Below the pieces are notes generated by a model, which made no database searches, was not told the DNA's origin, and was given only the letters and a program-made list of their open reading frames with translations. The translations under genes and the position numbers were made by a program. Below, one piece after another: positions 2,955 through 30,896 of a stretch of 32,000 nucleotides of DNA; positions within the stretch are counted from its first letter, which is position 1; each line of letters opens with the position of its first letter. The stretch spans positions 570,001 through 602,000 of the forward strand of contig JACQJH010000002.1 in NCBI GenBank assembly GCA_016205145.1, written 5' to 3'. This DNA comes from Candidatus Iainarchaeum sp. GTDB lineage: Archaea; Iainarchaeota; Iainarchaeia; Iainarchaeales; JACQJH01.

Positions 2955-4673
2955 ATGGACAGGAAACGGCTCGCCGCGCTTGTGGCCGAGAGCATAGACT
3001 CCGGCTCAGTCTCCACCAGGGACGGAATCAACCGCCTGAAAGCCAGGCTGGGCAAAAAAAGCCTCAAAGAACTGCCAAGCAACCCGGACCTCCTGGCTTT
3101 GGTTGAAAAGCCCAGCGTTAAGGCAAGGCAACTTCTCGGCGCAAAGCCGACCAGGACCATTTCAGGGGTTGCGGCTGTCGCAATAATGACAAGGCCGAAG
3201 GACTGCGCGCATGGCACGTGCATTTTCTGCCCAGGCGGGGAGAACAGCTTTTTCGGAAACGTGCCAAAAAGCTACACCGGAAACGAACCCGCGACAATGA
3301 GGGCAATTGCAAACAGCTTCGACCCATACCTGCAGGTGAAAAGCAGGCTGATGCAATACGTTTTGACCGGCCACAGCCCGCAGAAAATCGAACTCATCGT
3401 CATGGGCGGAACATTCCCAAGCTTTGATTGGAATTACCAGAAAGGCTTTGTTGCAGGCGCGTTCAGGGCAATGAACGATTTTTCCAGGGAATTTTTTTCG
3501 CATGGAAAGCTGGAATTTGAAAAAGCCGTGCAGGCGCAGGGCAAAAAAATTGCTGCGCCCGAAAATACCGGCACCGGCCTTGAAGCAGAAAAAGAGGACA
3601 ACGAGCATGCGAATGTGAAATGCGTTGCGCTCTGCATTGAAACAAAGCCGGACTGGTGCATGGAACCGCACATAGACCGGATGCTTGAACTTGGCACTAC
3701 GCGGGTCGAACTCGGCGTACAGAGCCTTGACGACAAGGTTTTGAAATTTGCGAACCGCGGCCACACTGCCAGGGAAAGCGTGGAAGCCACGCGGCTGTTG
3801 AAGGATTCCGGCCTCAAGGTTACGTATCACATGATGCCGGGCCTGCCCCTGTCAAGCCGCGAAAATGACCTCGCCGATTTCCGCGAACTGTTCGAAAACC
3901 CGGATTTCCGGCCGGATGCGCTGAAAATTTATCCGTGCATGGTCATGCCTGGAACTCCGCTTGAAAGGCTGTGGAAGGAAGGAAAATTCACGCCGCTTTC
4001 AAATGAGGATGCCGCGGAAATAATCGCGGAGGGAAAGCGCTTTGTTCCGAAATGGTGCCGCATCCAGCGGATTCAGCGTGACATTCCAAGCAAGCTTGCG
4101 GTTGCCGGAAAATTCGACAACAACCTGAGGCAGGTCGTCGAAAAGAAAACGCGCGAAAAGGCAATTGAATGCCAGTGCATTCGTTGCAGGGAAATCGGCT
4201 TGAAGGCGAGGGACGGGAAAATCGACGAAGAAAAACTCAAACCGGAAATCGTTATTGAAGAATACGAGGCAAGCAACGGAAAAGAATTCTTCATTTCATT
4301 CGAGGACGAAAAGCAGAGCGCATTGCTCGGCTTTTGCAGGCTCAGGCTTCCGTCCAGGCCGTTCAGGAAGGAACTTCAGGGCGAAACCGCGGTTGTAAGG
4401 GAACTGCACGTTTTCGGAAAAGCCGCGGCATTGGGGGAAACCAACGAAGGCGGGGTACAGCACCACGGAATAGGCAAGGCCCTGCTTGCGAAAGCGGAGG
4501 AAATCGCTTTCGATGAATCCGGCAAAAAAAGGCTGTGCGTGATTTCAGGGATTGGAGCGCGCGAATACTATTACCGGCTCGGATACGAAAAACTCGGCGC
4601 GTTTGTTGTCAAGGATTCTGCTGGCCGCACGCTAATTCAAGACAAAAGCGACAGCACTGAATTCAGCAGGTAA
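2955..4673 (+). CDS. elp3: Elp3-type radical SAM / GNAT tRNA uridine(34) modification enzyme
   Basis: KPTRTISGVAAVAIMT followed by radical-SAM cluster CAHGTCIFCPGG, then a C-terminal acetyltransferase domain (VRELHVFG...QHHGIGKALL). Start chosen at MDRKRL (ATG 2955) because the first 128 codons of listed ORF 2571..4673 are antisense to the neighbouring gene. Confidence 0.9.
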   Translation: MDRKRLAALVAESIDSGSVSTRDGINRLKARLGKKSLKELPSNPDLLALVEKPSVKARQLLGAKPTRTISGVAAVAIMTRPKDCAHGTCIFCPGGENSFFGNVPKSYTGNEPATMRAIANSFDPYLQVKSRLMQYVLTGHSPQKIELIVMGGTFPSFDWNYQKGFVAGAFRAMNDFSREFFSHGKLEFEKAVQAQGKKIAAPENTGTGLEAEKEDNEHANVKCVALCIETKPDWCMEPHIDRMLELGTTRVELGVQSLDDKVLKFANRGHTARESVEATRLLKDSGLKVTYHMMPGLPLSSRENDLADFRELFENPDFRPDALKIYPCMVMPGTPLERLWKEGKFTPLSNEDAAEIIAEGKRFVPKWCRIQRIQRDIPSKLAVAGKFDNNLRQVVEKKTREKAIECQCIRCREIGLKARDGKIDEEKLKPEIVIEEYEASNGKEFFISFEDEKQSALLGFCRLRLPSRPFRKELQGETAVVRELHVFGKAAALGETNEGGVQHHGIGKALLAKAEEIAFDESGKKRLCVISGIGAREYYYRLGYEKLGAFVVKDSAGRTLIQDKSDSTEFSR

Positions 4674-6766: not shown

Positions 6767-7297
6767 ATGTCTGAAACGAAACGCGTTTTTTTCGCTGTCG
6801 GCATTCCTCCGGAAATCAGGGAAAAAATCGCCCGGGATTTACTGCAGGGACTGCCGCAGGGCGTGAAGCCCGTCAAAAAGGAGAACCTGCATTTCACCCT
6901 TGTTTTCGTTGGCGGCTGGCCTTCTGAAAGGACTCCGGAACTGGTTGAAGCCGGAAAAAAGGTTTCAGGAAAGGCGTTTGGCGCGGAAATTTCAGGCATC
7001 GGGCAGTTCCATTCACGCGTCCTGTGGATCGGCATTGCGAAAGGCGCGGAAGAAATGGAGGTTATTGCCGGGCAAATCGGGAAAGCCCTCGGCCTGCCCG
7101 AACAAAAGTTCAGCGCGCACCTGACAATCGCAAGGAACAAATCCTTGGGGCAAAAGGAGTTCGCAGGCATTGCGGAAAGTCTGGGCGTGAAAAAGTTTTC
7201 CGAAAAATTCCGCGTCCAGGGCTTCGAACTCATGGAATCTGAGCTTTTGCCGGACGGCCCGGAATACAAAGCCCTGCATTCGTTCAGCTTTGCCTGA
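6767..7297 (+). CDS. thpR: RNA 2',3'-cyclic phosphodiesterase / 2'-5' RNA ligase family (ThpR/LigT)
   Basis: Two H-x-T-x motifs (HFTLVF and HLTIAR) with typical 2H-phosphoesterase spacing. Start at MSETKRVFFAV. Confidence 0.85.
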   Translation: MSETKRVFFAVGIPPEIREKIARDLLQGLPQGVKPVKKENLHFTLVFVGGWPSERTPELVEAGKKVSGKAFGAEISGIGQFHSRVLWIGIAKGAEEMEVIAGQIGKALGLPEQKFSAHLTIARNKSLGQKEFAGIAESLGVKKFSEKFRVQGFELMESELLPDGPEYKALHSFSFA

Positions 7298-8831
7298 TGT
7301 GCTCGAAAACCTTTTTGAGGATTTCTTCCGGCTCGGTGTAGTATTGCTGGATGAAGCGCTGCACCGCATAATAGTCGGCCACGCCCGTTTCAATGAGCCA
7401 CTCGATTATTTTCTGCCTGACAAGCATTTCCTGCTTGACCTCGTTTTTTGACTTGAAGGTTTTTTCCGCCAGGACTTCGACCATCCTGCTCGGCACGTCC
7501 GTCCTTTCCAGGGCATCGGATTTGCGGTCGTACTCGAAAACATTGCTCAAGAGCACCTGGTCCTGCATCCGGGATATTTCGGATATCGCCTTGACGCGCC
7601 TTATGACCCCGACTTTCGGGTTGAAGAACTTTTCAGTCACTATTGCCAAATCGAGCAGGGGCAGCATGGCCGCAGGCACGTTCATTGGCGGCGACTTGAG
7701 GCGGAGCATCATTTCCTTGGCGGAATTTGAATGCACTGTTCCAAGAATGCCCTTATGGCCTGTGTCCATTGCAACGAAAAGCGTCTGCGCCTCTTCCCCT
7801 CTCACTTCCCCAACAATGAGCCTGTCCGGGCGCATCCTGAGCGAATTCTTGAGCAGGTCATCCATTGACACTCCGGGGGTTTTTCCTATCGCGGGCCTTG
7901 CCTCCAACTGCACCCAGTTGTCCCGCTCGCCCAGGGAAATTTCAAGCGTGTCCTCGATTGAAATGATGCGGTCATTGAGCCGTATGAAGGAAGCCATGAC
8001 GTTCAAGAGCGTTGTCTTTCCGCTCGAAGCGCCGCCCGTGACAAGGATGTTCATGGGCTCGATTGAAAGGCCTTCCGCCAGCGCCCAGATGAATGCCGCT
8101 GCCTCCGCCGACACAGTATTGCTTTTGACAAGGTCGACCACGGACAAGGGAATGAACGAGAATTTTCTCACTGTCAGGGAATGGCCTGCCGGGGAGACCT
8201 GGCTGAAGGTCGCGTTCGCCCTGCTCCCGTCAGGAAGCCGTGCGTCAAGCAATGGATTCGCTTCGTCAAATTGCTTGCCCGCAGAAACGGAAATCCTGCG
8301 GATGAGCGAAAAAAGTTCGGACTGCGAAAAAGATATATCGGACGTGCACATTCCATACTGCTTGTGGAAAATGAAAACGTTTCTGGAAAAACCGTTCACC
8401 ATGATTTCCTCGATCATGGGGTCGGACATGAAAACCGAAATCTTGCCCAATCCCAGGGACAATCCGAAAACGTTGGCCGCGAAAAAATCCGGGTCCTTCA
8501 CGAACGCGAATTCGCGGAGAAAATCGGCAAGCATCTGCCTTGCTGTTGAAAGCTCCTCTTCCGGAACAAGGGATTCGACTGCGTTGGCCGCTTCCACCTG
8601 CTGGACAACGCGCTTCAGCTTTTCGGACTGCTGCTTTGACAATTGCATTCCCGCATAACCTGAAATGTCTGCGGTGCGCGAAAAGACTTTTGCGAGAAAG
8701 CCCGCGAAATCGGATTCTTTCGCCGAAAAGCCGGGGTCAAAGGAATATTTGCTGTAAGGATATCCCCGGGCAATGGAAACATTGCCTTCGGCGAAGCGCT
8801 TTGGCACCGGCACCGGAATCAGAACCACCAA
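7284..8831 (-). CDS. Type II/IV secretion-family ATPase (archaeal type IV pilus / archaellum FlaI-PilB-like)
   Basis: Walker A GGASSGKTTLLN, Asp box SIEDTLE, Walker B RPDRLIVGEVRG and His box GHKGILGTVHSN. The start codon is TTG 8831 or GTG 8828. Confidence 0.85.
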   Translation of the reverse strand: MVVLIPVPVPKRFAEGNVSIARGYPYSKYSFDPGFSAKESDFAGFLAKVFSRTADISGYAGMQLSKQQSEKLKRVVQQVEAANAVESLVPEEELSTARQMLADFLREFAFVKDPDFFAANVFGLSLGLGKISVFMSDPMIEEIMVNGFSRNVFIFHKQYGMCTSDISFSQSELFSLIRRISVSAGKQFDEANPLLDARLPDGSRANATFSQVSPAGHSLTVRKFSFIPLSVVDLVKSNTVSAEAAAFIWALAEGLSIEPMNILVTGGASSGKTTLLNVMASFIRLNDRIISIEDTLEISLGERDNWVQLEARPAIGKTPGVSMDDLLKNSLRMRPDRLIVGEVRGEEAQTLFVAMDTGHKGILGTVHSNSAKEMMLRLKSPPMNVPAAMLPLLDLAIVTEKFFNPKVGVIRRVKAISEISRMQDQVLLSNVFEYDRKSDALERTDVPSRMVEVLAEKTFKSKNEVKQEMLVRQKIIEWLIETGVADYYAVQRFIQQYYTEPEEILKKVFEHIRQS

Positions 8832-8875: not shown

Positions 8876-10252
8876 ATGGAAATGGAAAAGATTTTCAGGA
8901 AAATCCTTGCAAAAGTGAAGCCCGGGCCTGGAGAAATAGCGAAAGAGACTGCCTTTGCGGAAGGCTTAGTTGACAGCATAATGAAAATGCCGGGCAAACA
9001 TTTGAGGGCCGAGATTGTCGGCTCATTCGCAAGGCAAACCCATTTGCGCGGCGACAATGACATCGACATTTTCGTTATTTTCCCCCAGGCGGTCGGGCGC
9101 GCGGATTTCGAAGCCGAAGGACTGCGCATAGGCAAAGCCGTGTTCGGAAAAAACAGGTGGGTTGAAGCCTATTCCGAGCACCCTTACATCAGGGGCAGCA
9201 TCAGCGGCTTTGACGTTGAAATCGTTCCAAGCTATGACATAGGCGAAGGCCAAAGCATTGTCAGCTCTGTTGACAGGAGCCCATTGCACAACCGCTTCCT
9301 CAGGGGAAAGCTCTCGGAACAGCAGAAGGACGAGGTCAGGCTGTTAAGGCAGTTTCTCAAGGGAATCGGCTGCTATGGCGCGGACATAAAGGCAAGCTCG
9401 GTTCCAGGCTACGTGACCGAACTGCTCATTCTCAAATTCGGCTCGTTCAGGGAATTCCTCAGGAATGCCTCGGAATGGCGCGAAGTCGAAGTCATCGACC
9501 TTGCAACGCACCTTGACGAAAACGCCGCCATAAAAAAATTCGGCCACCATTTCATTGTCGTCGACCCGATTGACAAAAACAGGAACGTTGCCGCGGCACT
9601 GTCAAAAAACCAGTACTGCAGGATAATCGCGGCAAGCAGGGCGTTCCTTGAAAAGCCGTCCGGAAAATTCTTTTACCCGGAAAAAACCAGGGCGTGGAGC
9701 GTTGAAAAGCTGAGGAAAAAGCTTTCGGAAATAGAGCTTGTCGCGCTGAAGCTGCCGTACCCTGAAAAAGCCCTGCCGGACGTGGTTTACGGCCAGGCCA
9801 AAAGATTCGGCAGGAAAACCGCCAACGGCCTTGAAATGCACGATTTCAGGATTTACAGGCACTCCGAATGGAGCGACGAAAAAAAACAGGCCATAATCGT
9901 TTTCGAACTGGAAAACCTGCAAATCCAGAAAACAAAAATCCATGCCGGCCCGCCAGTGACGAACGCGCCTGACAGCAAAAGGTTTCTGGCGGAGCACAGG
10001 AACTGCACTGCCGGCCCGAGAATAGTTGACGGCCGGTGGGTAGTCGAAAAAAAACGCGAATTCCACGACGCAAGAAGCCTGCTCAAAAAAATCTGTTCGG
10101 ATTCGGCCAAAACCGAAAAGCCGCCGCTCAAAAAAGCATTGCAGAAAGCCGCAATCGAAAGCGAGGAGAAGCTCGTGCAGACTTTCAGGAAAAGCCCGGG
10201 CTTCGCGGAATTCCTCACGGAATGGCTGGAAGGAAAAGAGAAATTCCTCTAA
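8876..10252 (+). CDS. cca: Archaeal class I CCA-adding tRNA nucleotidyltransferase
   Basis: VGSFARQTHLRGDNDIDIFVIFP nucleotidyltransferase motif; length and the SVDRSPLHNRFL region are typical of archaeal Cca. Confidence 0.9.
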   Translation: MEMEKIFRKILAKVKPGPGEIAKETAFAEGLVDSIMKMPGKHLRAEIVGSFARQTHLRGDNDIDIFVIFPQAVGRADFEAEGLRIGKAVFGKNRWVEAYSEHPYIRGSISGFDVEIVPSYDIGEGQSIVSSVDRSPLHNRFLRGKLSEQQKDEVRLLRQFLKGIGCYGADIKASSVPGYVTELLILKFGSFREFLRNASEWREVEVIDLATHLDENAAIKKFGHHFIVVDPIDKNRNVAAALSKNQYCRIIAASRAFLEKPSGKFFYPEKTRAWSVEKLRKKLSEIELVALKLPYPEKALPDVVYGQAKRFGRKTANGLEMHDFRIYRHSEWSDEKKQAIIVFELENLQIQKTKIHAGPPVTNAPDSKRFLAEHRNCTAGPRIVDGRWVVEKKREFHDARSLLKKICSDSAKTEKPPLKKALQKAAIESEEKLVQTFRKSPGFAEFLTEWLEGKEKFL

Positions 10253-10312: not shown

Positions 10313-10576
10313 TTAGATTAAAGTCGCCGATTCCGTTTCAACTTCGCTTACACCGCTGATGTCCCGGATTTCCTGTTCAAGCTTGTCCATCAGGCCCTCG
10401 CTTTTATCCGGAATCTTGATGCCGATCCTGAAAACCGACAGGCCGAACGCGACAGGCTCTTTCCTGACTTCCTGCACCACGCCGGTCTTGACTCCTTTCA
10501 GGCCTGCCTCGACCTTGTCCGAGTCCTCAGGGCTTTCAGGGAAAACCTTGAAAACAACCATCACATTGCTGCCCAT
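10313..10576 (-). CDS. ef1b: Translation elongation factor aEF-1 beta
   Basis: 87 aa (VMVVFKVFPESPEDSDKVEAGLK...EPVAFGLSVFRIGIKIPD...VSEVETESATLI). Size and pattern match aEF-1beta. Confidence 0.9.
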   Translation of the reverse strand: MGSNVMVVFKVFPESPEDSDKVEAGLKGVKTGVVQEVRKEPVAFGLSVFRIGIKIPDKSEGLMDKLEQEIRDISGVSEVETESATLI

Positions 10577-10585
10577 AAAAACCGC

Positions 10586-10744
10586 CTATGGTCCGACAAA
10601 GCCGCAGGAAGGGCAAACGTAAGGCTTGGCTGTCTGCCTTGAATGCAACGAGCGCACAATCCTTTCCTTCGAGCAGGCCGGGCACTTGAACTCTATGAAG
10701 TCGATTGTGACTTCCCTGTTGCTTGTCATGCAAACCTTCATCAT
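10586..10744 (-). CDS. Zn-ribbon RNA-binding protein (COG2888-like) conserved upstream of aEF-1beta
   Basis: 52 aa (MMKVCMTSNREVTIDFIEFKCPACSKERIVRSLHSRQTAKPYVCPSCGFVGP) with CPAC...CPSC, in the classic position just upstream of ef1b. The longer listed ORF 10586..11122 runs through a tRNA gene. Confidence 0.8.
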   Translation of the reverse strand: MMKVCMTSNREVTIDFIEFKCPACSKERIVRSLHSRQTAKPYVCPSCGFVGP

Positions 10745-10833: not shown

Positions 10834-10988
10834 GGGCCTGTAGTCTAACGGACAGGACGGCCGGCTTCGGACCGCTGCCCTTTTCTTTTTCTTCGCAAGA
10901 AAAAGAAAAAGTGCAGGGCGCCCAAAAAGAAAGAAACGGGCAAACGGGAAGAGACCGGCTGATGGGGGTTCGAATCCCTCCGGGCCCG
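10834..10988 (+). tRNA. tRNA-Arg (anticodon TCG) with 83-nt intron at 37/38
   Basis: Acceptor GGGCCTG/CGGGCCC, D stem GTCT/GGAC, anticodon stem GCCGG/CCGGC, loop CTTCGGA, T arm GGGGG-TTCGAAT-CCCTC, discriminator G. Intron is 10871..10953. BHB: central helix CTTC/GAAG flanked by 3-nt bulges GGA and AGA, outer helix CCG/CGG. Confidence 0.85.
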
Positions 10989-11121
10989 CTTTCGCGCGGG
11001 CGAAACGAAACCAAGGCGTCTTGCTTTTGCAAGACGCCGGGTAGGTATAAACATAAGTAGTGTTCCGCGAAGCGCGAACACCACGCACGGGGTTTGCAAG
11101 GGGCGAAAGCCCCTGCGTGCA
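10989..11121 (+). repeat. Hairpin cassette between two copies of the tRNA-Arg 3' end
   Basis: Contains GCCCGC-TTTCGC-GCGGGC (overlapping the tRNA end), gaaaccaagg, GGCGTCTTGC-tttt-GCAAGACGCC, GTGTTC(C)GCG-aag-CGCGAACAC, and ggggtttgcaaggggcgaaagcccctgcgtgc. The module order parallels the elements at 19239-19420 and 28616-28748. Confidence 0.6.
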
Positions 11122-11138
11122 AATCCCTCCGGGCCCGA
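11088..11138 (+). other. tRNA 3'-half-like segment (second copy of aatccctccgggcccg)
   Basis: The 16-mer at 10973-10988 recurs exactly at 11122-11137. Removing the 25-nt hairpin 11095-11119 would give CGGGG-TTCAAAT-CCCTC-CGGGCCC-G, a near-canonical T arm plus acceptor strand. Confidence 0.5.
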
Positions 11139-11139
11139 A

Positions 11140-11194
11140 CCGGCGGTTTCGTCCGCCGGGTCCGACGATGGGTACACCGCTGCGCGCTGTACCC
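11140..11194 (+). repeat. TTTCGT-loop hairpin plus GGGTACA/TGTACCC hairpin (trailer module)
   Basis: CCGGCGG-TTTCGT-CCGCCGG at 11140-11159, then GGGTACA...TGTACCC at 11170-11194. The loop of the second hairpin holds cgctgcgcgctgt, which also occurs at 15628-15640. Confidence 0.6.
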
Positions 11195-11251
11195 TTCTGC
11201 TTTATTTTCGGTATTAACTGTTTCAGGGCGTGCGACGCCTAAAGCCCCCGC

Positions 11252-11259
11252 TTTTTAAG
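11252..11259 (+). promoter_or_regulatory. TATA-like box upstream of rad50
   Basis: tttttaag lies about 25 nt upstream of ATG 11282. This is consistent with a leaderless or short-leader archaeal transcript. Confidence 0.4.
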
Positions 11260-11281
11260 TTTTTTTGGCACATTCTTGTTT

Positions 11282-13348
11282 ATGATTAAGCGCGTCCTGC
11301 TTGAAAACTGGAAAACGCATTCCAGGAGCGAACTGTTTTTCGGCCAGGGCACGAACGTGCTTGTAGGCAGGATGGGCGCCGGCAAAACGAGCGTGATGGA
11401 CGCAATCTGCTTTGCCTTGTTCGGAACATTTCCCTCATTGAACTCGCGCAGGGTTTCGCTTGACGAGGTTGTAATGAACAAGCCCAACCAGATGGACTTC
11501 TGCAGGGTTGAAATGGACTTCGATTATGCAGGAAAAAGCTTTGCCGTCGAAAGGACGATAAATTTCGGGAAAAAGGCGAATGAGGCTAAATTGTTCTGCG
11601 CGGGAAAGCTTGTTGCCGGGCCGAGCGTTTCAGACGTGACCAAAAGAATCGAGGACACGATTGAACTGGATTTCGAGCTGTTTTCAAGGGCCGTCTACTC
11701 CGAGCAGAATGAACTGGACTTTTTTTTGAGGATGTCGCCTGCGCAGAGAAAGGCGAAATTCGACGAGCTTTTGGACCTGGAAAAATACGAGAATGCGCGG
11801 GCGGCGGCTTCGACCGCCTCAAGCAGGCTCAAGGCGCAGGCCAAGGACCGGCAGAGAGTAGTGGAAAAAATCGGGCAGGACGCGACCAAGGCCGACCTTG
11901 AAAGCCTCAGGAAACGGCTTGGCGAAAAAGCCGGGTTGGAGGAAAAGTATCTGGCGGAAAAGCTTTCGAAGGAATCCGAACTCGAAAAGGCGGAAAAACT
12001 TCTAGTGGAACTTGAAAAATCCGAGGCCGAGGCAAGGCAATTGAATGAGAGCCTCATCAGGGCCGTTGCCGGCCTGGAAGAGGCGAGAAAGGGAATTGAG
12101 CGCGCGAGGAAAATGCTTGCGGGCAGGAATGCCGGGGAAATCCGGAAAATCCTTGGCGAAAAAGAGGCCGTTGCGAAAGACATCGACGAAAAGGAAATTC
12201 CGGAACTTGAATCGGAGCTGAAGAACAGGTTCAACGAATCCAATGCGGTTTTCAGGAAAAGCGAGCTGTGCAGGTCGAAGATTTCCGATCTGAAAAAAAA
12301 GTCGGAAAGGCTGGCGGGGCTTGAAGCGGTCTGCCCAACGTGTTACAGGGAACTTTCGGACGGGGACCGGAAAAGCGTCATAGGCGCAAACGAAAGCGAA
12401 AAAGCCTCGCTTGAAAAGGAGCTTGCCGCGCTCGCGGGAGAGCTTGAAAAAAGCGAGGGCCGCAAAAACAAGGCCGAGGAAAATGCGAGGGCCGCAATGA
12501 AAAGGCTTTCCCTGGAAAAAGACGGAATCCGGGAAACTAAAACCCTGCTTGCCGAAGCGCTTGAACTGGAAAAAAAGGAAGCTGACTCCAGGAGTATGGA
12601 GGAAAAGGCTTCAGAATTCCGAAAGCTTGTTTCCGGACAAAAATTTTCCCCCGAAGACCTGAAGGCCGCGAGAAAAAAGGCGGGCGACTGCGATTCCGCG
12701 CTTAAGGTGATAGGCAAGGGCATTGAAAGCAACCGCGAGCTCATGAAAACCATTGAAGCTGCAATCGAAAAGGCGGAAGCCACATTGCAGGTTGCGGAAA
12801 GCATGAAACAGGAAATAGTCTCGCTTGAAAATGCGTCGCGTGATTTGTCGGTTTTTGTCAACGCGCTTTCGTCGGCGCAGGCGGAATTGAGGCAGACAAT
12901 GATTGAAAGCGTCAACGAGGCCCTCGCGGATATCTGGCCCAGGGTTTACCCTTACCGTGATTATGTCGGGGCAAGGCTTGAAATCGTGGATGGAAACTAT
13001 GAACTGAAGGCAAGGCATTTTTCCGGCGCTTGGACAAGGATTGACGGCATACTTTCCGGGGGGGAGAGAAGCTCGGCCGCAATCTGCGTAAGAATAGCGT
13101 TCTCTCTTGTCCTCACGCAGAATCTCGGCATCATAATCCTTGACGAGCCCACGCACAACCTCGACTCAAGCGCGGTTGAGGCCCTTACAACAATGCTGAA
13201 AACGCATCTGCCCCGGCTTGTCGGGCAGGTTTTCATCATCACACATGACAAGGAAATGGAGAAAGCGGCTTCCTCATCGCTCTATCAGCTGGACCGCGAA
13301 AAAGACTGCGCTGAAGCCACAAAAATAATTTCAGCTGAAACGCAATAG
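11282..13348 (+). CDS. rad50: Rad50-type SMC ATPase (short coiled-coil arms)
   Basis: Walker A GRMGAGKTS, long heptad-rich middle, CPTC zinc hook at 12332-12343, signature LSGGERSS, Walker B IIILDEPTHNLD. ATG at 11282; the listed start 11276 is TTG. Confidence 0.85.
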   Translation: MIKRVLLENWKTHSRSELFFGQGTNVLVGRMGAGKTSVMDAICFALFGTFPSLNSRRVSLDEVVMNKPNQMDFCRVEMDFDYAGKSFAVERTINFGKKANEAKLFCAGKLVAGPSVSDVTKRIEDTIELDFELFSRAVYSEQNELDFFLRMSPAQRKAKFDELLDLEKYENARAAASTASSRLKAQAKDRQRVVEKIGQDATKADLESLRKRLGEKAGLEEKYLAEKLSKESELEKAEKLLVELEKSEAEARQLNESLIRAVAGLEEARKGIERARKMLAGRNAGEIRKILGEKEAVAKDIDEKEIPELESELKNRFNESNAVFRKSELCRSKISDLKKKSERLAGLEAVCPTCYRELSDGDRKSVIGANESEKASLEKELAALAGELEKSEGRKNKAEENARAAMKRLSLEKDGIRETKTLLAEALELEKKEADSRSMEEKASEFRKLVSGQKFSPEDLKAARKKAGDCDSALKVIGKGIESNRELMKTIEAAIEKAEATLQVAESMKQEIVSLENASRDLSVFVNALSSAQAELRQTMIESVNEALADIWPRVYPYRDYVGARLEIVDGNYELKARHFSGAWTRIDGILSGGERSSAAICVRIAFSLVLTQNLGIIILDEPTHNLDSSAVEALTTMLKTHLPRLVGQVFIITHDKEMEKAASSSLYQLDREKDCAEATKIISAETQ

Positions 13349-13377
13349 GAAGCAATGGAAGGATTCTAAAAAAAGGT

Positions 13378-13608
13378 TCAGGCCGCAACTGCCTTGGCCG
13401 CCGCAAGCTTTTTCTCTTCCTTTGATTTTCTTGCAAGGCCCCTTGTTATGAAGCCCGCAATCGTGTTCCTGCTGACCTGCGGAAGCCCGAAATCAAGGCC
13501 GTCGATTGCCAGCTTGTTTTTCTCAAAATCGGCGCCGAAGAGGGCAGGATACTCGTTGAGCAATACCTTTGCCTTGAATTTGAGTGCCTTTGGAACAGCT
13601 TTTCCCAT
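13378..13608 (-). CDS. rps17e: Ribosomal protein S17e (eS17)
   Basis: MGKAVPKALKFKAKVLLNEYPALFGADFEKNKLAID...SRNTIAGFITR matches the eS17 N-terminal pattern. ATG at 13608. Confidence 0.8.
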   Translation of the reverse strand: MGKAVPKALKFKAKVLLNEYPALFGADFEKNKLAIDGLDFGLPQVSRNTIAGFITRGLARKSKEEKKLAAAKAVAA

Positions 13609-13619
13609 CAAAAATCGCC

Positions 13620-13826
13620 TCAGTTGATTTCAATCTTTTTTATCTGGCCGTCAGGGTATTTTCTCAAAACCGCCAGCGGAATTACCCTGCGGTTGAACTC
13701 TTCAATCGCAATGTCCTCCATCCTGAGCACTTTTGCAGGCTTGACGAGCGGCGGTGCGCCGAGCGAAAGCTGAAGGGTGCGAGCGCCGATTATTCTCGCG
13801 GTTTCAAACCGTGTAAGCTTTTCCAT
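13620..13826 (-). CDS. rpoK: DNA-directed RNA polymerase subunit K (Rpo6)
   Basis: The 68-aa C-terminal part of listed ORF 13620..13958 reads MEKLTRFETARIIGARTLQLSLGAPPLV, the RpoK/omega signature. Confidence 0.85.
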   Translation of the reverse strand: MEKLTRFETARIIGARTLQLSLGAPPLVKPAKVLRMEDIAIEEFNRRVIPLAVLRKYPDGQIKKIEIN

Positions 13827-13964
13827 CAAAAAACACCAAAAAAAGCAGGTGCAGAGAAGGGTTTGGAGAAAAACTCCAATCAAACATCTTGCAGGCAAAG
13901 GATTAAAAAGCTGTCTCAGGCGTGCCTCATGCTGTCGGTGGTTTGGGTTTTCAGGCACTCTTGC

Positions 13965-15470: not shown

Positions 15471-15675
15471 GGCGCTTTTAAGTTTCTTCGGAGGAGAGTG
15501 CGCTTCCCCTGACCGCCGTCATCGCCCGGCGGGTACGTTTTGTGGCATCCGCGCTGTTGCGGGATGCCACGCATGCTTTGCGGGGTTTGCAAGGGGTGCA
15601 ACCCCTGCACTCGCTTTGCTCGCATAGCGCTGCGCGCTGTTGCGCGATGGTTCGACGTGGCCTGAACTACGGCGC
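15471..15675. repeat. 205-nt non-coding block made of GC-rich hairpin modules
   Basis: Contains CCGCCG-tcatcgc-CGGCGG at 15513-15533, the 29-nt hairpin GTGGCATCCGCGCTGTTGCGGGATGCCAC at 15542-15570, ggggtttgcaaggggtgcaacccctgcac, ctcgctttgctc, and cgctgcgcgctgt. Each of these has a counterpart near a tRNA gene elsewhere in the window. Confidence 0.6.
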
Positions 15676-17837: not shown

Positions 17838-18191
17838 TCAGAGTAGTTTCAGGCTCGAAGTGAACCTGTCGATTTCGGAATCCGGAGCCGGGCCGATTGC
17901 AATGCACGTCGCTTCCCCCGCTTCAATCTGCGTCCTTCCCGCATCCTTTATCAGCGCGCACGGCAAAAGCTTTTTCGCGGACTCGAACAGCTCAAGCAGT
18001 TCATTTCTGCTTCCAACTTTGAGCACGACCTTCGCCTGGCCGGAAGCCTTCCACTCCTCGACCCAGCCCGGCTTTTTTGCCGAAGTTTTTTCGACTGCCT
18101 CAAGGCTTGCGTGCGCTACTTGGGCACAAGTTTTCCCGACACCAAGTTTCAAATCTTTTCTTACAACAATTGCCTGTTTATATTCAGTCAA
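17838..18191 (-). CDS. pth2: Archaeal-type peptidyl-tRNA hydrolase (Pth2)
   Basis: 117 aa (KQAIVVRKDLKLGVGKTCAQVAHASL...DAGRTQIEAGEATCIAIGP). The TTG start at 18191 lies inside the 3' end of the upstream endonuclease gene. Confidence 0.9.
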   Translation of the reverse strand: MTEYKQAIVVRKDLKLGVGKTCAQVAHASLEAVEKTSAKKPGWVEEWKASGQAKVVLKVGSRNELLELFESAKKLLPCALIKDAGRTQIEAGEATCIAIGPAPDSEIDRFTSSLKLL

Positions 18192-19110
18192 TTTTTTCGC
18201 CCCTTTTTCTTAAATGGTCTTTGAACCGCAAATATTTCCTATCTAAACATAAGCCATTACAATTTTTATACATCCATCTGCAAAGAATGCGTGCATTATC
18301 ACCGTAAAATTCAATTTGCCACGTTCTGTCTGACGACATTTTCACATTACTTGTTCTTATTTTAATAATTTTAACCATTGTTTCCTTTAAATCTTTAATA
18401 AATTTTTCATTGCCAACAATCTTTATTTTGATTGTGTTTGGTTGGTTGAAATGAATACTTCCGTCCCCATCAAAATAACCTCTTACAAAATTAGCGAGGT
18501 ATTTTTGGGGAATTTTTGGCAGCCTTATTTTTTTTGCTTTTTTTGGCCCACACCCAAGAGCTATTAAATCGGAACACATTTTTTTGCTATGCACTGAGAA
18601 GCTCAGGTAATCTCCGTGAATTTTTATTCCATGGTTACTTTTTAGGGCTTTTTTAATTTTTTCCACGATTTTTAAGTCTTTTTTATTTAGGTGCAGGCGA
18701 AATGTTCTTTTGTCAGCGGTGACATTTCCATCGCTAAACATCCAACCCAAAACATATGCAGATTCGCGAGTCCAGACGGAAAAGAAACTTTCGTCGACTT
18801 TGTTATATCTTTTTCTAATTGGCCTCGATATTCTCAATTTGTGTGCTTTATGATACACTGAAGATTTGGTTCTTCTAGGAAATAATATGTGTATGTTGTT
18901 TTTTCCGGCGTAGTGTTCCTTCAGCATCTGAAGTTCTTTTTGTGCCCAGAAAAGACGGGGCGTTGTCAACCCAAATGCATGGAGCTTTCGCTGAATTGTG
19001 GTTTTGCTCACATTATTTTCTTTCGCTATTTCCAAGTAATTCTTGTGTTTAAGCTGCTCTTCCAAATATTCTTTTGAATTATAAAATTTCACAATAAGAT
19101 ACTGTGTCAA
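18184..19110 (-). CDS. Free-standing LAGLIDADG homing endonuclease with N-terminal HTH region
   Basis: Two LAGLIDADG motifs (YVLGWMFSDGNV and FVRGYFDGDGSI). N-terminal HTH-like YLEIAKENNVSKTTIQRKLHAFGL. Lys/Ile/Asn-rich composition. Confidence 0.85.
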   Translation of the reverse strand: MTQYLIVKFYNSKEYLEEQLKHKNYLEIAKENNVSKTTIQRKLHAFGLTTPRLFWAQKELQMLKEHYAGKNNIHILFPRRTKSSVYHKAHKLRISRPIRKRYNKVDESFFSVWTRESAYVLGWMFSDGNVTADKRTFRLHLNKKDLKIVEKIKKALKSNHGIKIHGDYLSFSVHSKKMCSDLIALGCGPKKAKKIRLPKIPQKYLANFVRGYFDGDGSIHFNQPNTIKIKIVGNEKFIKDLKETMVKIIKIRTSNVKMSSDRTWQIEFYGDNARILCRWMYKNCNGLCLDRKYLRFKDHLRKRGEKID

Positions 19111-19238
19111 TCAGTTTAAACTATGGTATAATCTTTCCTTTACCCAAAATTGAAGCCCGGGATAATAATGTCTAAGCCGCAGTTTAAAAACCTGCATTTG
19201 TGCATGGCGGAATCGTCAAACACGAAAAAAGAATGAGA
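18184..19238 (-). mobile_element. AT-rich island carrying the homing endonuclease
   Basis: Hand counts of five 60-nt lines inside give 18-47% G+C (about one third on average), against more than 50% in flanking lines. The island is bounded by pth2 and by the hairpin element starting at 19239. Confidence 0.5.
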
Positions 19239-19420
19239 TTACTCGGCCTTTCACAACAGTGATGCCCCAGAATCCAAAGATTCTGGGCACGTCGCAAAAT
19301 CCAAGATTTTGCAACGAAGGCCTTAGTTTCGGACCCGGCGTTGCGAGCAACGCGAGCCAGCGGCACTTTACGTGCCGCGCGCACCAGACGGGCGTGACGT
19401 CTCGGCGGACGAAACCGCCG
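19239..19420 (-). repeat. Composite hairpin element (longest copy of the family)
   Basis: Read on the minus strand: CGGCGG-TTTCGT-CCGCCG, agacgtcacgcccgtct, CGGCAC-gtaaa-GTGCCG, GCGTTGC-tc-GCAACGC, then an 88-nt two-hairpin module (19248-19335), then gccgagtaa. Confidence 0.7.
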
Positions 19421-19422
19421 GC

Positions 19423-19893: not shown

Positions 19894-20035
19894 GATCTCA
19901 CCAAAAAAAGTTGTAAGAAGATAAGTCGTTTCTGGTTAAAAATCTTTGTCTGGAAAAACCGGTTTGCCGGCCAAGCATTTCACGGGAAACCCGCCTGCCC
20001 AGCATTTTAAAGCAGTTTTTCCCATTGTTTTGCCG

Positions 20036-21139
20036 ATGACAATCAATTCGGTTATCGACGAGGCCGTTTCCGGCATACATGCAATGGATGCAAGGCGGAA
20101 AATCTTTTCAGAAAAGCTGCTGCTTTTGAAGGATGAAGACCTTGCCCCGCTGAACGACAGGGAATTGCTCGAAGACAGGCTCATCCTTCCGGTGCGCAAT
20201 GCGCAGGCGTTTTCGAAAAAGGTTGCGGGCGTGGATTCGGGGTTTGCGGACAAGCGCCTGTTCTCGTTCGACCTGATTCTTGTGCGCGCGGTCGCGGTCT
20301 GCTTTGCATATGACAACGGAAAGCTCGCTTCCGCGCAATATTTGCCAAATTATTTTTCTTTTCCGACGCCGTTGCTGAACAATGCCGCGCTGGACAACGA
20401 CGAGTTCCAGGTCAGCAGGTCGTTGCAGAGGCTGCTCGAGGAAGTGAGGCTTGCGAAAAGGGCGATTGCGGAATTCAGGCCGGACTATTGTTTTCTGGAT
20501 GGCAGCGTGATTCCGCAGTACGTCGAGTCTCGGCAGGACTCGCAGGTGAAGGCATTTTACCATGAAACCCTGGCGGAGTTCCAGCAGTTGTATTCCGAAG
20601 CAGAGAAAGCGGGCTGCCAGATTGTCGGCTGCGTCGAGGACAGCCGCGGCAGCCAGCTGCGCACAATCCTGCAGAAAAGCGTCCTGCCGAAAGTGCCGGT
20701 GTGCAATCCCGCTCTGCTGGATGAAACATATGATTCCGTGCTATTGGATTACCTTTTGAAAAAAGGCGAGCGGAGCTTTGCATTCAATTATTCGGCGCAC
20801 GCAAAAGAGCACCCCATCCTGAAGGATTTCGACGAGAAGTGGGCGAAGCAGGTGCACGTTTTTTACCTGAAGCCTGTTGACTTCGACAGGCCGCTGAGAG
20901 TGGAGTTCTTGTCGAACAAAAAAGGGCCTGAATTCGCAGGGCACGTTGATGAGATTGCGCAGGCCGTGCGCTTCCTCTCCGGCTTCCACAAGGAATACGC
21001 TTATCCAAGCGTCCTGATAGAAGCCGATTTCAGGGCGCGCCTGAACAACGCTGAAATCGAAACCGTTTACGAAAAAATCGTGGACAAGCTCAGCAGGCAC
21101 TTGAAACTCAGGCTGAGAAGGAACAGCAGGCCATTTTGA
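20036..21139 (+). CDS. nurA: NurA 5'-3' nuclease
   Basis: VAGVDSGF and CFLDGSVIPQ acidic motifs, suitable size, and position upstream of herA. ATG at 20036 (MTINSVIDEA); the listed start 19946 is TTG. Confidence 0.7.
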   Translation: MTINSVIDEAVSGIHAMDARRKIFSEKLLLLKDEDLAPLNDRELLEDRLILPVRNAQAFSKKVAGVDSGFADKRLFSFDLILVRAVAVCFAYDNGKLASAQYLPNYFSFPTPLLNNAALDNDEFQVSRSLQRLLEEVRLAKRAIAEFRPDYCFLDGSVIPQYVESRQDSQVKAFYHETLAEFQQLYSEAEKAGCQIVGCVEDSRGSQLRTILQKSVLPKVPVCNPALLDETYDSVLLDYLLKKGERSFAFNYSAHAKEHPILKDFDEKWAKQVHVFYLKPVDFDRPLRVEFLSNKKGPEFAGHVDEIAQAVRFLSGFHKEYAYPSVLIEADFRARLNNAEIETVYEKIVDKLSRHLKLRLRRNSRPF

Positions 21140-22984: not shown

Positions 22985-23084
22985 AAGAGTAAGCTTACTC
23001 GGCGTTGCGAGCAACGCGAGCCAGCGGCACTTTACGTGCCGCACGCACTAGACGGGCGTGACGTCTCGGCGGACGAAACCGCCG
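22985..23084 (-). repeat. Hairpin element, short copy (lacks the two-hairpin module)
   Basis: 23000-23084 matches 19336-19420 at 83 of 85 positions. It is preceded by the palindrome GAGTAAGCTTACTC. Confidence 0.75.
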
Positions 23085-23086
23085 CC

Positions 23087-23122
23087 GGGAAAACTTTTGA
23101 TAAAAGTTTTATCAAAAGTCAC
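23087..23122. repeat. 36-nt AT-rich palindromic motif downstream of tRNA-Gly(GCC)
   Basis: gggaaaaCTTTTGATAAAAgTTTTATCAAAAGtcac. Its reverse complement recurs at 30833-30868 with 35 of 36 identical. Confidence 0.75.
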
Positions 23123-23187
23123 CCGGCCGGCAGAGGGGCTGAGCCTTGCGAAGCCCCTCAACGTCGCACCAACCGGGCGATGACGGT

Positions 23188-23345
23188 TGCGACCACCGGG
23201 AGTCGAACCCGGACCTGAACCTGATTGCAGCCCTGCGCCTCCAAAAAAGAAAATTTTTTTCTTTTGTGGGAAAACACCTTTTTCTTTTTCAAAAAAGAAA
23301 AAGGGCCCTGGCAAGGTCCAATCCTAACCGCTAGACCATGGTCGC
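23188..23345 (-). tRNA. tRNA-Gly (anticodon GCC) with 86-nt intron at 37/38
   Basis: Acceptor GCGACCA/TGGTCGC, D stem GTCT/GGAT, anticodon stem GGACC/GGTTC, spliced loop TTGCCAA, T arm CCGGG-TTCGACT-CCCGG, discriminator A. Intron is 23223..23308. BHB: central helix TTGC/GCAA, bulges CAG and TCA, outer helix GGCCC/GGGCT. Confidence 0.8.
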
Positions 23346-28615: not shown

Positions 28616-28748
28616 AGCAGCCGATTTCGTCCGCAGCCGTCACGTCCGGCGGGTACGAACCAAGGCTTATCATGGCAAAATCGCGATTTTGCCATGTGCC
28701 CGGAATCTTGGGATTCCGGTGCATGCTGCTGCAATAAGCCGAGTAAGC
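28616..28748 (+). repeat. Hairpin element directly abutting the tRNA-Val 3' end
   Basis: ccgatttcgtccgc, ccgtcacgtccggcgggtacg, then gaaccaagg, hairpin CATGGCAAAATC/GATTTTGCCATG (28671-28696), hairpin TGCCCGGAATC/GATTCCGG(T)GCA (28697-28723), and gccgagtaagc. Colinear with the minus strand of 19239-19420. Confidence 0.7.
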
Positions 28749-30632: not shown

Positions 30633-30686
30633 GCCCGATGAAGCGAAGCGAATCGGGCGTCGGACTCGGCGGACGAAATCGCCGAG
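30633..30686 (+). repeat. Two GC hairpins forming the 5' flank of tRNA-Gly(TCC)
   Basis: GCCCGAT-gaagcgaagcga-ATCGGGC at 30633-30658 and CTCGGCG-gacgaaat-CGCCGAG at 30665-30686. The second is the reverse-orientation version of the TTTCGT-loop hairpin, and its last base is tRNA position 1. Confidence 0.65.
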
Positions 30687-30796
30687 CGCCTGTAGCGTAG
30701 TGGTAGCGTTCGACCCTTCCAAAACTTTTTTAGAAAAAAAGTTTGCAAAAAAGTCGAGGTGAGGTCGCGGCCCGGGTTCGACTCCCGGCGGGCGCA
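30686..30796 (+). tRNA. tRNA-Gly (anticodon TCC) with 40-nt intron at 37/38
   Basis: Acceptor GCGCCTG/CGGGCGC, D stem GCGT/GCGT (wobbles), anticodon stem CGACC/GGTCG, spliced loop CTTCCAA, T arm CCGGG-TTCGACT-CCCGG, discriminator A. Intron is 30722..30761, with central helix CTTC/GAGG and 3' bulge TGA. The 5' side is less regular, so this is a relaxed BHB. Confidence 0.8.
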
Positions 30797-30832: not shown

Positions 30833-30868
30833 GTGAATTTTGATAAAACTTTTATCAAAAGTTTTCCC
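30833..30868. repeat. 36-nt AT-rich palindromic motif downstream of tRNA-Gly(TCC)
   Basis: gtgaaTTTTGATAAAAcTTTTATCAAAAgttttccc, the reverse complement of 23087-23122 at 35 of 36 positions. It may double as the TATA region for rnp4 (ATG 30897). Confidence 0.75.
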
Positions 30869-30896
30869 GACGGGCGCAACTAAAAAATTGGTTCTG

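Follow-up and report, generated by a model that had tools for sequence, protein, structure and literature searches.

The tRNA-Arg(TCG) gene described here is followed, 133 nt downstream, by a second copy of its own 3' end, and this copy is a dead partial tRNA gene fragment beside an intact gene. The duplication is real and non-random, and the spacer that carries it is a mosaic of palindromic modules resident in the genome. As to its origin, our tentative preference goes to an attR-like scar of recombination at the T loop/3' end of the tRNA gene, later remodelled by turnover of the modules. This is an ordinary kind of feature, already known, in an unusual setting. The window, i.e. the whole 32-kb stretch of DNA that was analysed (from a 637-kb contig), belongs to an uncultured DPANN archaeon, kin to the Iainarchaeota/Diapherotrites: among reference genomes, the nearest homologues of its Rad50-like ATPase show 35-57% identity and belong to MAGs, several of which bear the name Candidatus Iainarchaeum, and the other homologues retrieved by protein searches are labelled Diapherotrites.

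An intact tRNA-Arg gene and a partial second copy of its 3' end

The features of the locus are collected in Table 1. The first copy of the repeat had been said in an earlier note on this DNA to complete a canonical tRNA-Arg(TCG), and this proved correct. The gene matches Rfam RF00005 with 47.1 bits (gathering score 29); ARAGORN, with introns allowed (-i), returns tRNA-Arg(tcg) with i(38,83), i.e. an 83-nt intron; and the intron has a canonical bulge-helix-bulge (BHB) motif, CGGCCGG-CUUC-[gga]-CCG...CGG-GAAG-[aga]-CCGGCUG. The latter was located with a purpose-written BHB finder, which recovered canonical introns at 10871-10953 in the window and at 3039-3126 in the related locus L030. The BHB motif and the Rfam and ARAGORN calls taken together therefore mean that copy 1 completes a normal tRNA-Arg gene: copy 1 alone suffices for a normal tRNA, and the gene at 10834-10988 is functional.

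The 16-mer AATCCCTCCGGGCCCG was found, as reported in that note, on the + strand at both places (copies 1 and 2) and, when up to two mismatches were allowed, nowhere else in the window. Its chance expectation is 0.05 matches, and two or more matches were obtained in 0 of 100 shuffles. The sequence upstream of copy 2 also reads as described in the note, with CGGGGTT (11088-11094), the 25-mer TGCAAGGGGCGAAAGCCCCTGCGTG (11095-11119) and CAAAT (11120-11124). Deletion of the 25-mer does recreate the expected near-complete T arm: the resulting sequence, CGGGGTTCAAATCCCTCCGGGCCCG, is identical to the last 25 nt of tRNA-Arg at 23 of 25 positions, with a T loop UUCAAAU versus UUCGAAU in copy 1. Copy 2 reaches tRNA positions ~49-73 only, i.e. 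a pseudo T arm, the acceptor 3' strand and the discriminator; the exact repeat starts in the T loop and stops exactly at the discriminator.

An assembly artefact was considered and ruled out. Three independent Logan assemblies (SRR12113383, -84 and -85) show 0 mismatches to the window over the common stretches; two of them (L027 and L028) span the duplication (10973-11137) and the third (L029) starts at 11170. The duplication is not an artefact because independent assemblies agree base for base and two of them span the region.

Table 1. Features of the tRNA-Arg(TCG) locus and of related loci in the window
Feature	Position	Strand	Remarks
T2SSE ATPase	7284-8831	-	
CCA-adding enzyme	8876-10252	+	
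aEF-1beta	10313-10576	-	
Small zinc-ribbon protein	10586-10744	-	
tRNA-Arg(TCG) gene	10834-10988	+	exon 1 10834-10870, intron 10871-10953, exon 2 10954-10988; followed by the hairpin spacer, then Rad50
Copy 1 of the 16-mer	10973-10988	+	T-loop end, T-stem 3' strand, acceptor 3' strand and discriminator G of the real tRNA
Module U	10984-11045	+	P'-type hairpin GCCCGC-TTTCGC-GCGGGC (10984-11001), linker, hairpin Q, tail
Linker of module U, GAAACGAAACCAAG	11002-11015	+	linker motif CGAAACCAAGG
Hairpin Q	11015-11038	+	perfect, 10 bp
Tail of module U, GGGTAGG	11039-11045	+	tail motif CCGGGTAGG
AT-rich spacer TATAAACATAAGTA	11046-11059	+	inside the cassette
Hairpin H3, GTGTTCCGCG-AAG-CGCGAACAC	11060-11081	+	
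Extended pseudo-copy	11088-11094 + 11120-11137	+	23/25 versus the last 25 nt of tRNA-Arg
Long hairpin M, GGGGUUUGCA-AGGGGC-GAAA-GCCCCU-(GCG bulge)-UGCAAAUCCC	11089-11127	+	minimum-free-energy fold and centroid
Copy 2 of the 16-mer	11122-11137	+	partial, non-functional tRNA-Arg 3' fragment
P hairpin CCGGCGG-TTTCGT-CCGCCGG	11140-11159	+	after copy 2
Hairpin R (GGGTACA...TGTACCC) and T-rich run TTCTGCTTTATTTTC	11170-11209	+	
Rad50-family ATPase gene and TATA-like GCTTTTTAAG	11250-13348	+	ATG 11282; Pfam SMC_N, Rad50_zn_hook
S17e, Rpb6, then a 495-aa protein	after the Rad50 gene	- (all three)	
Paralogous array in another spacer	15513-15609	+	P'-type hairpin 15513-15532, hairpin 15542-15570, M-like unit CGGGGTTTGCAAGGGGTGCAACCCCTGCA 15581-15609
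tRNA-Gly(TCC)	30686-30796	+	3' end CCCGGCGGGCGCA 30784-30796; downstream copy CCCGACGGGCGCA 30866-30878

Hairpin modules of the spacer

The 133-nt cassette between the copies consists largely of hairpins that recur elsewhere, and the P hairpin beyond copy 2 recurs as well. The linker-hairpin-tail unit of module U is also found in L030 (7578-7630, in another spacer) and in the tRNA-Gly(TCC) trailer of L341/L344; among the three copies 5 of the 10 stem pairs are compensatory (both sides changed) and pairing is 100%. H3, CACGCA and the next hairpin form a composite that recurs at 15542-15609. Hairpin M, interrupted by one GCG bulge only, has the pseudo T stem as its base and includes the 25-mer. 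The relative of the 25-nt unit that the note had placed outside any tRNA is real and lies at 15581-15609; it shares with the 25-mer the 16-mer CGGGGTTTGCAAGGGG, then CCCCTGC, and it includes CGGGGTT, the supposed ‘T-stem 5' half’, which is thus present at 15581 with no tRNA fragment there. Since CGGGGTT travels with the hairpin to 15581, the ‘split T arm’ could in part belong to the module itself.

The P module (CGGCGG-TTTCGT-CCGCCG) recurs at 19403-19421, 23067-23084 and 30658-30684, always on the - strand, and a variant is found on the + strand at ~28618-28633, after tRNA-Val. Larger linker-hairpin versions, with a three-way junction, are present at ~19170-19335 (-) and 28660-28745 (+). The array at 15523-15577 has a 55-nt copy, 85% identical, at a different locus in L341. 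An 85-nt repeat joins 19336-19420 to 23000-23084 (97.6% identity), and part of it lies, in opposite orientation, in the tRNA-Arg trailer of the L031 type (see below). Its copy at 19336-19420 is a nested module insertion, flanked by a short CGCCG repeat. In module U the 5' arm of the P'-type hairpin is the tRNA-Arg's own 3' end; a hairpin armed in the same manner is seen after tRNA-Gly(GCC), at ~23150-23195 on the - strand.

The tRNA-Arg trailer folds far better than its shuffles (z = -6.4). Comparison of the cassette with Rfam gave no RNA family, either at gathering thresholds or at E<=5, and inspection of the trailer for a C/D-box or H/ACA RNA revealed none of the box motifs. Hairpin R and its T-rich run are probably the end of the tRNA transcription unit, with a putative role as terminator. 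On the right, the variable spacer is bordered by a conserved flank, the Rad50 gene with its promoter block, the latter being kept in L030. Not one of these module motifs is present in 26 more distant Iainarchaeota loci.

To sum up their properties, the modules are short imperfect palindromes, multi-copy, intergenic, present in both orientations, arranged as mosaics and different from one lineage to the next, as are REP/BIME sequences. Nothing in the cassette is demonstrably foreign, because its modules are resident and also occupy non-tRNA loci. We concluded that the cassette is a mosaic of lineage-specific, fast-evolving, REP/BIME-like palindromic modules and not foreign DNA.

The locus in related genomes

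Three lineages only, the window included, were found in databases by protein searches, and a single metagenome scan returned the L031 contig only. L030 has a Rad50 92% identical to that of the window; the gene order is conserved, and so is the tRNA, whose intron measures 88 nt. Alignment with the window fails between the discriminator and the Rad50 promoter, although the flanks are ~95% identical. The L031 type (76-82% identical, three identical contigs) has an intronless tRNA-Arg. The spacer is 257 nt long in the window (with the exact copy 2), 135 nt in L030 and 93 nt in the L031 type (without any copy).

After its single exact 16-mer L030 reads AACCGCGG, where the window reads AACCGGCGG after copy 2. 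A decayed pseudo-copy, GGGGGTT-[25 nt]-CGAATCCCCCGAGCCGGC, lies nine bases farther along in L030; it is split after T55 and matches at 18 of 25 positions. The bases that border the tRNA end are of two kinds: CTTTCGCGCG comes after the tRNA in the window (copy 1) and in L031, and AACCG after copy 2 of the window and after the L030 tRNA. The split pattern GGGGTT-N(1-60)-CRAATCCC gave three matches in 422 kb of the phylum: two are the tRNA-Arg trailers of the window and of L030, and the third is a chance match in coding sequence. The tRNA end is not repeated downstream at any of 26 distant Iainarchaeota loci, and in near and distant relatives (29 tRNA loci) tRNA-Arg(TCG) is never followed by a tandem tRNA.

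A simple presence/absence of the cassette in relatives had been put forward as favouring an integration scar. It was seen only in part: L031 has a single copy, and L030 has no exact second copy but a decayed one. Given these mixed states there is therefore no clean presence/absence: the spacer has been rebuilt in each lineage, and the tRNA-end fragments are of differing ages. The tRNA end was also considered as an inversion breakpoint and rejected, since the Rad50-S17e-Rpb6 inversion that distinguishes the window from L031 breaks at two promoter-like GCTTTTTAA instead.

Copies of other tRNA ends

The last 13 nt of tRNA-Gly(TCC) are repeated 69 nt downstream (12/13), and this copy ends at the discriminator. 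Between gene and copy are a hairpin and an AT palindrome. The copy sits just upstream of the Rpr2 gene (ATG 30897) and is likely to be in its promoter, because the gene start follows. It is kept in L341-L345 with a different single mismatch, always after AAAACTTTTATCAAAAGTTTT and before the start of the Rpr2 gene, while its distance from the tRNA changes from 69 nt in the window to ~130 nt in the relatives.

A further case is L036, an IMG/VR contig with a terminase gene, where the tRNA is followed by 57 nt and then by an exact 21-nt copy of its end. There, a 4-nt insertion comes after the two T's of the T loop, a position that is the same as in the window. All four repeats stop exactly at the discriminator, and in the three pseudo-copies of Arg type (window, L030 and L036) the interruption is at the identical T-loop position. 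In both the window and L036, copy 2 is paired with an inverted partial copy just upstream.

Intron and split-tRNA readings

Two of the explanations offered in the earlier note, a second, non-canonical T-loop intron with the true 3' end at 11137 and an orphan 3' tRNA half, did not survive. Both readings fail because the borders of the 25-mer lack a BHB and because neither a D arm nor an anticodon arm lies upstream. The BHB finder gave nothing at 11094/11095 and 11119/11120, nor at the borders of a hypothetical 149-nt insert in the T loop (at 10971/10972), and no relaxed motif was seen at the borders either; copy 1, moreover, already completes the tRNA. Joining of exons across the 25-mer would yield a T arm and an acceptor 3' strand only, not a cloverleaf. 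Upstream of copy 2 there is no D or anticodon arm, anticodon stem or variable region, only more hairpins, and Rfam gives no tRNA match at copy 2 at E<=5. The acceptor 3' strand of copy 2 can pair only with the palindromic CGGGCCCG in copy 1, a segment that departs as part of the mature tRNA. No complementary 5'-half partner was found in the window; copy 2, a fragment of positions ~49-73 devoid of the upstream arms, does not have the makings of a split-tRNA 3' half. For annotation, the tRNA-Arg(TCG) call should include the 83-nt intron and place the 3' end at 10988, and copy 2 should be flagged as a tRNA gene fragment, neither intron nor split gene.

Search for a mobile element

Searches of the 32-kb window with Pfam, NCBIfam and PHROGs revealed no integrase, casposase/Cas1 or transposase; there was no integrase match among its unannotated ORFs and no RAYT/IS200-IS605-type transposase. 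The 133-nt cassette contains no credible ORF. No attP-like junction was found in the IMG/VR, phage and plasmid collections: the 16-mer matched 7 IMG/VR loci, all of them lacking the junction, and phage and plasmid BLAST gave no match. Scans with the M, P and linker motifs for a free element returned chance matches or terminator hairpins of bacterial phages only. Next to the copies (10989... and ...11121) there are no terminal inverted repeats; the sole inverted match, CTTTCGC/GCGAAAG, is internal on the right side.

Origin of the duplication

In the reading that we tentatively prefer, DNA would have recombined at the T loop/3' end of the tRNA-Arg gene, where many tyrosine integrases cross over. 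This would have produced a complete tRNA on the attL side and a displaced 3' fragment on the attR side, and the DNA once present between the copies would since have been lost or replaced by fast-turnover hairpin modules. The 25-nt hairpin, whose place is precisely the 7-nt T loop where strands are presumed to be exchanged, would then be a later insertion or footprint and not an RNA intron. Both the action of a site-specific recombinase and the order of events are what we infer from the arrangement of the locus.

An attR-like scar is ranked first because T-loop-type tyrosine integrases leave just such a block, extending from the T arm as far as the 3' end. The exact repeat goes from the T loop to the discriminator, and the 25-nt block at 23/25 has the extent of the experimentally defined 26-nt T-loop att core of mycobacteriophage Ms6, i.e. 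T arm and acceptor 3' strand (PMC1762012). Partial copies beside complete tRNA genes are a documented and common outcome of element integration in archaea, with rearrangements, as exemplified in Thermococcaceae (PMC9897764). Also in line with a scar are the variation of the spacer among three lineages despite ~95% identical flanks, the near restriction of the split T-arm pattern to two tRNA-Arg trailers, the like geometry of L036, the conserved tRNA-Gly(TCC) copy, which ends at the discriminator too, and the sufficiency of copy 1 for a normal tRNA. On the other side of the balance, merely 133 nt with no coding capacity separate the copies, the window has no integrase, casposase or transposase, no attP was found, the cassette is made of resident modules that also occupy non-tRNA loci, a canonical attR would have an uninterrupted T arm, CGGGGTT and the hairpin also stand together at 15581, away from any tRNA fragment, and the flanks conflict, with CTTTCGCGCG for the window and L031 tRNAs versus AACCG for copy 2 of the window and the L030 tRNA. 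Of the att-like repeats left by an integrative element that had been proposed initially, the scar is therefore retained, on account of the T loop-to-discriminator repeat and of relatives that differ, and the element, with no integrase, body or attP and a filling of resident modules, is putative. The main rival is a local duplication independent of any recombinase, in which the tRNA trailer is a hot spot where dispersed modules were copied in by replication template switching or microhomology-mediated repair, the 16-nt repeat being a by-product. We consider it possible but somewhat less probable. Template switches would be favoured by the palindrome in which the tRNA ends (CGGGCCCG) and by the abundance of hairpins; every part of the cassette also occurs at other, non-orthologous loci, in either orientation; the insertion at 19336-19420 is nested between CGCCG repeats; the hairpins armed by a tRNA 3' end (10984-11001 and tRNA-Gly(GCC)) resemble fold-back copies; in the window and L036, copy 2 has an inverted partial copy upstream; and no recombinase was found in the window. 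It leaves unexplained, however, both the common T-arm start and discriminator end of the tRNA-Arg, tRNA-Gly(TCC) and L036 copies and the identical point of T-loop interruption in the window, L030 and L036, and an exact repeat of 16 nt is long for microhomology.

The other explanations are all improbable, to slightly different degrees. A target-site duplication of casposon type, or by a miniature derivative, where the 16-nt repeat results from fill-in after staggered cleavage at the tRNA 3' end and the cassette is the decayed or miniature element, is unlikely: casposons do enter the 3'-distal part of tRNA genes, with duplications of 14 nt (up to 35 nt) and solo-TIR remnants (PMC4779613), and direct repeats of 13, 16 and 21 nt all stop at the tRNA end, but these lengths vary between cases, unlike a fixed duplication, no terminal inverted repeats adjoin the copies and the window has no Cas1 or other transposase. 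A shade less probable still is a functional RNA element, i.e. an alternative 3' part of the tRNA, a shared split-tRNA 3' half or a tRNA-like signal for processing of the trailer. The perfect identity of copy 2 (16/16) amid surroundings that cannot be aligned between close relatives, the equal 25-nt spacing of the split pseudo T arm in L030, the stability of the trailer fold and the retention of the tRNA-Gly(TCC) copy across lineages would suit it. They are set against the lack of a BHB at the required borders by a finder that recovers canonical introns, the absence of D and anticodon arms upstream and of any Rfam match, an acceptor 3' strand that pairs only with the end of copy 1, which departs with the mature tRNA, and the decay of the L030 copy (18/25) and its absence from L031; the promoter position of the tRNA-Gly copy, ahead of Rpr2, would be enough by itself to explain its conservation. 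Very improbable, finally, is a decayed former tandem tRNA-Arg gene, of another isoacceptor with the T loop TTCAAAT: tRNA-Arg(TCT)-type genes of other archaea (L033) end in precisely CAAATCCCTCCGGGCCCG, but a tandem tRNA behind tRNA-Arg(TCG) is absent from all relatives (29 tRNA loci), and traces of D and anticodon arms are likewise missing upstream of copy 2.

Comparison with known systems

The locus resembles the attL/attR partial tRNAs of tyrosine-integrase systems in its complete tRNA followed by a downstream direct repeat, from T arm to discriminator, and in its location at a rearrangement-prone spot that varies between relatives. It differs from them by its length (133 nt), by the lack of integrase, body and attP, by the 25-nt hairpin in the pseudo T arm and by its filling of resident repeats. 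CIMEs, a concept from Streptococcus, are cis-mobilizable or decayed att-flanked remnants without recombination genes, and those described are bacterial and kilobases long; they share with our case the att-like direct repeats and the lack of a recombinase, whereas here there are 133 nt of hairpins whose mobility is putative. As in bacterial REP/BIME sequences (PMC3733652, PMC3184786), the modules are short GC-rich imperfect palindromes assembled in mosaics near the 3' ends of genes, intergenic, in both orientations and variable between close strains. In contrast with REP/BIME, the host is a DPANN archaeon, single-stranded linkers (CGAAACYAAGG ... CCGRGTAAG) surround covarying helices, the link to copies of tRNA 3' ends is no REP feature and the window has no RAYT-type transposase. 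Casposons (PMC4779613) likewise give direct repeats of ~14-16 nt from the 3'-distal part of tRNA genes and gene-less remnants (solo TIRs), but here TIRs and Cas1 are lacking and the repeat length is variable. Non-canonical archaeal introns and split tRNAs (PMC4090602) are comparable by the insert in a T-loop-like sequence and by host tRNAs with long introns, and different in that here there is no BHB, no tRNA body and a complete gene is present.

The small DPANN genome thus carries a fast-evolving family of structured palindromic repeats. A broader proposal, which we regard as rather unlikely, is that hairpin cassettes and split pseudo T arms together represent an active, lineage-specific family of miniature non-autonomous palindromic elements of Iainarchaeota-related DPANN archaea, inserting or being mobilised at the T loop/3' end of tRNA genes and duplicating the tRNA tail; it would be REP/BIME-like, possibly with structured trailer RNAs, and would exist alongside the mobile tRNA introns of ~85-94 nt that these genomes also contain. 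If the repeats were mobile, biology of the REP/BIME type would be extended to archaea with reduced genomes, and the repeats would be a tractable marker for strain-level dynamics in groundwater communities. The tRNA genes of the lineage are hot spots for duplication of their 3' end, turnover of their trailer and gain or loss of introns; the long tRNA introns are themselves apparently mobile.

Patchy long introns in tRNA genes

The coordinates of the features discussed here are collected in the table. The long introns (83-94 nt) found at the canonical position have in common a core of the form CTGCCCTTTTCTTTTTCTT...AAGAAAAAGAAA...GCCCAAAAAGAAA, seen in the tRNA-Arg(TCG) genes of both the window and the relative L030, and in the tRNA-Gly(TCC) of the related loci L341-343. 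The intron of tRNA-Gly(GCC) is similar in style; this gene gave no Rfam match at either threshold used, ARAGORN with introns being its sole detector. The Arg intron is missing from the tRNA-Arg of the L031-type lineage (76-82% identical), and the tRNA-Gly(TCC) of the window and of the related locus L344 carries a different, 40-nt intron instead of the long type. Such a patchy distribution in the sequences suggests recent gain, loss or transfer of introns between tRNA genes.

Features of the window and of related loci
Feature	Sequence	Position	Strand	Basis or remark
tRNA-Arg(TCG) long intron, common core	window	10871-10953		
tRNA-Arg(TCG) long intron, common core	L030	3039-3126		
Locus of tRNA-Gly(TCC) with long intron, common core (L341-343)	L341	1586-1750	-	
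tRNA-Gly(GCC)	window	23188-23345	-	ARAGORN, introns allowed; intron ~86 nt
Intron-containing tRNA and 3'-end copy	L036	680-790	-	IMGVR_UViG_3300009285_002298, viral contig with terminase
Rad50 homologue	window	11282-13348		
LAGLIDADG-type endonuclease ORF	window	18184-19110	-	Pfam; PHROG 4645, E=2e-49
NurA homologue	window	19946-21139		
HerA homologue	window	21438-22979		

Copies of tRNA 3' ends

The 3' end of tRNA-Gly(TCC) (30784-30796) is repeated, with 12 of 13 positions identical, at 30866-30878, directly upstream of the gene for the RNase P protein Rpr2; the copy has a TATA-like AT palindrome on one side and the Rpr2 ATG (30897) on the other, and is kept in the related loci L341-L345 with differing single mismatches. 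The trailer of tRNA-Gly(GCC) opens with a hairpin, one arm of which is that tRNA's own 3' end. On the viral contig L036, an exact 21-nt repeat of the tRNA 3' end is located 57 nt downstream of the tRNA, and the spacer contains an inverted T-loop/T-stem copy (GGGATTTGA) that pairs with this repeat.

Dispersed hairpin repeats and assembly breaks

An 85-nt repeat with four small hairpins occurs at 19336-19420 and 23000-23084 (97.6% identity). One copy follows the stop codon of a protein gene, and the other lies within the tRNA-Gly(GCC) trailer, with a terminal hairpin plus T9; a 46-nt piece (89%) is found in opposite orientation inside the tRNA-Arg trailer of the L031-type lineage. A near-perfect AT-rich palindrome (TTTTGATAAAAC TTTTATCAAAA) is likewise present in two spacers (23093-23119 and 30838-30862), with flanks 97% identical over 37 nt and, at one of the two sites, a T-stem-like CCGGG...CCCGG border; the palindrome may act as promoter or terminator, or may represent a TIR pair. 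All three Logan contigs end at position 15568, within a palindrome (15542-15570) with a perfect 11-bp stem. Short-read assembly evidently breaks at the hairpin modules, and spacers of this kind will therefore be under-represented in MAGs.

Gene order and a putative homing endonuclease

The Rad50-S17e-Rpb6 block (11250-13960) is in the opposite orientation in the L031-type lineage (L031 1244-3900), with the inversion breakpoints at the two mutually facing, promoter-like GCTTTTTAA sequences. With the CCA enzyme and Rad50 as reference, the orientation of tRNA-Arg and aEF-1beta is reversed in more distant relatives. The Rad50, NurA and HerA homologues of the window do not share an operon, and no Mre11 gene adjoins Rad50 there. 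The LAGLIDADG-type ORF, probably a mobile gene for a homing endonuclease, lies beside a module-rich spacer in a low-GC patch (38%, compared with about 52% elsewhere).
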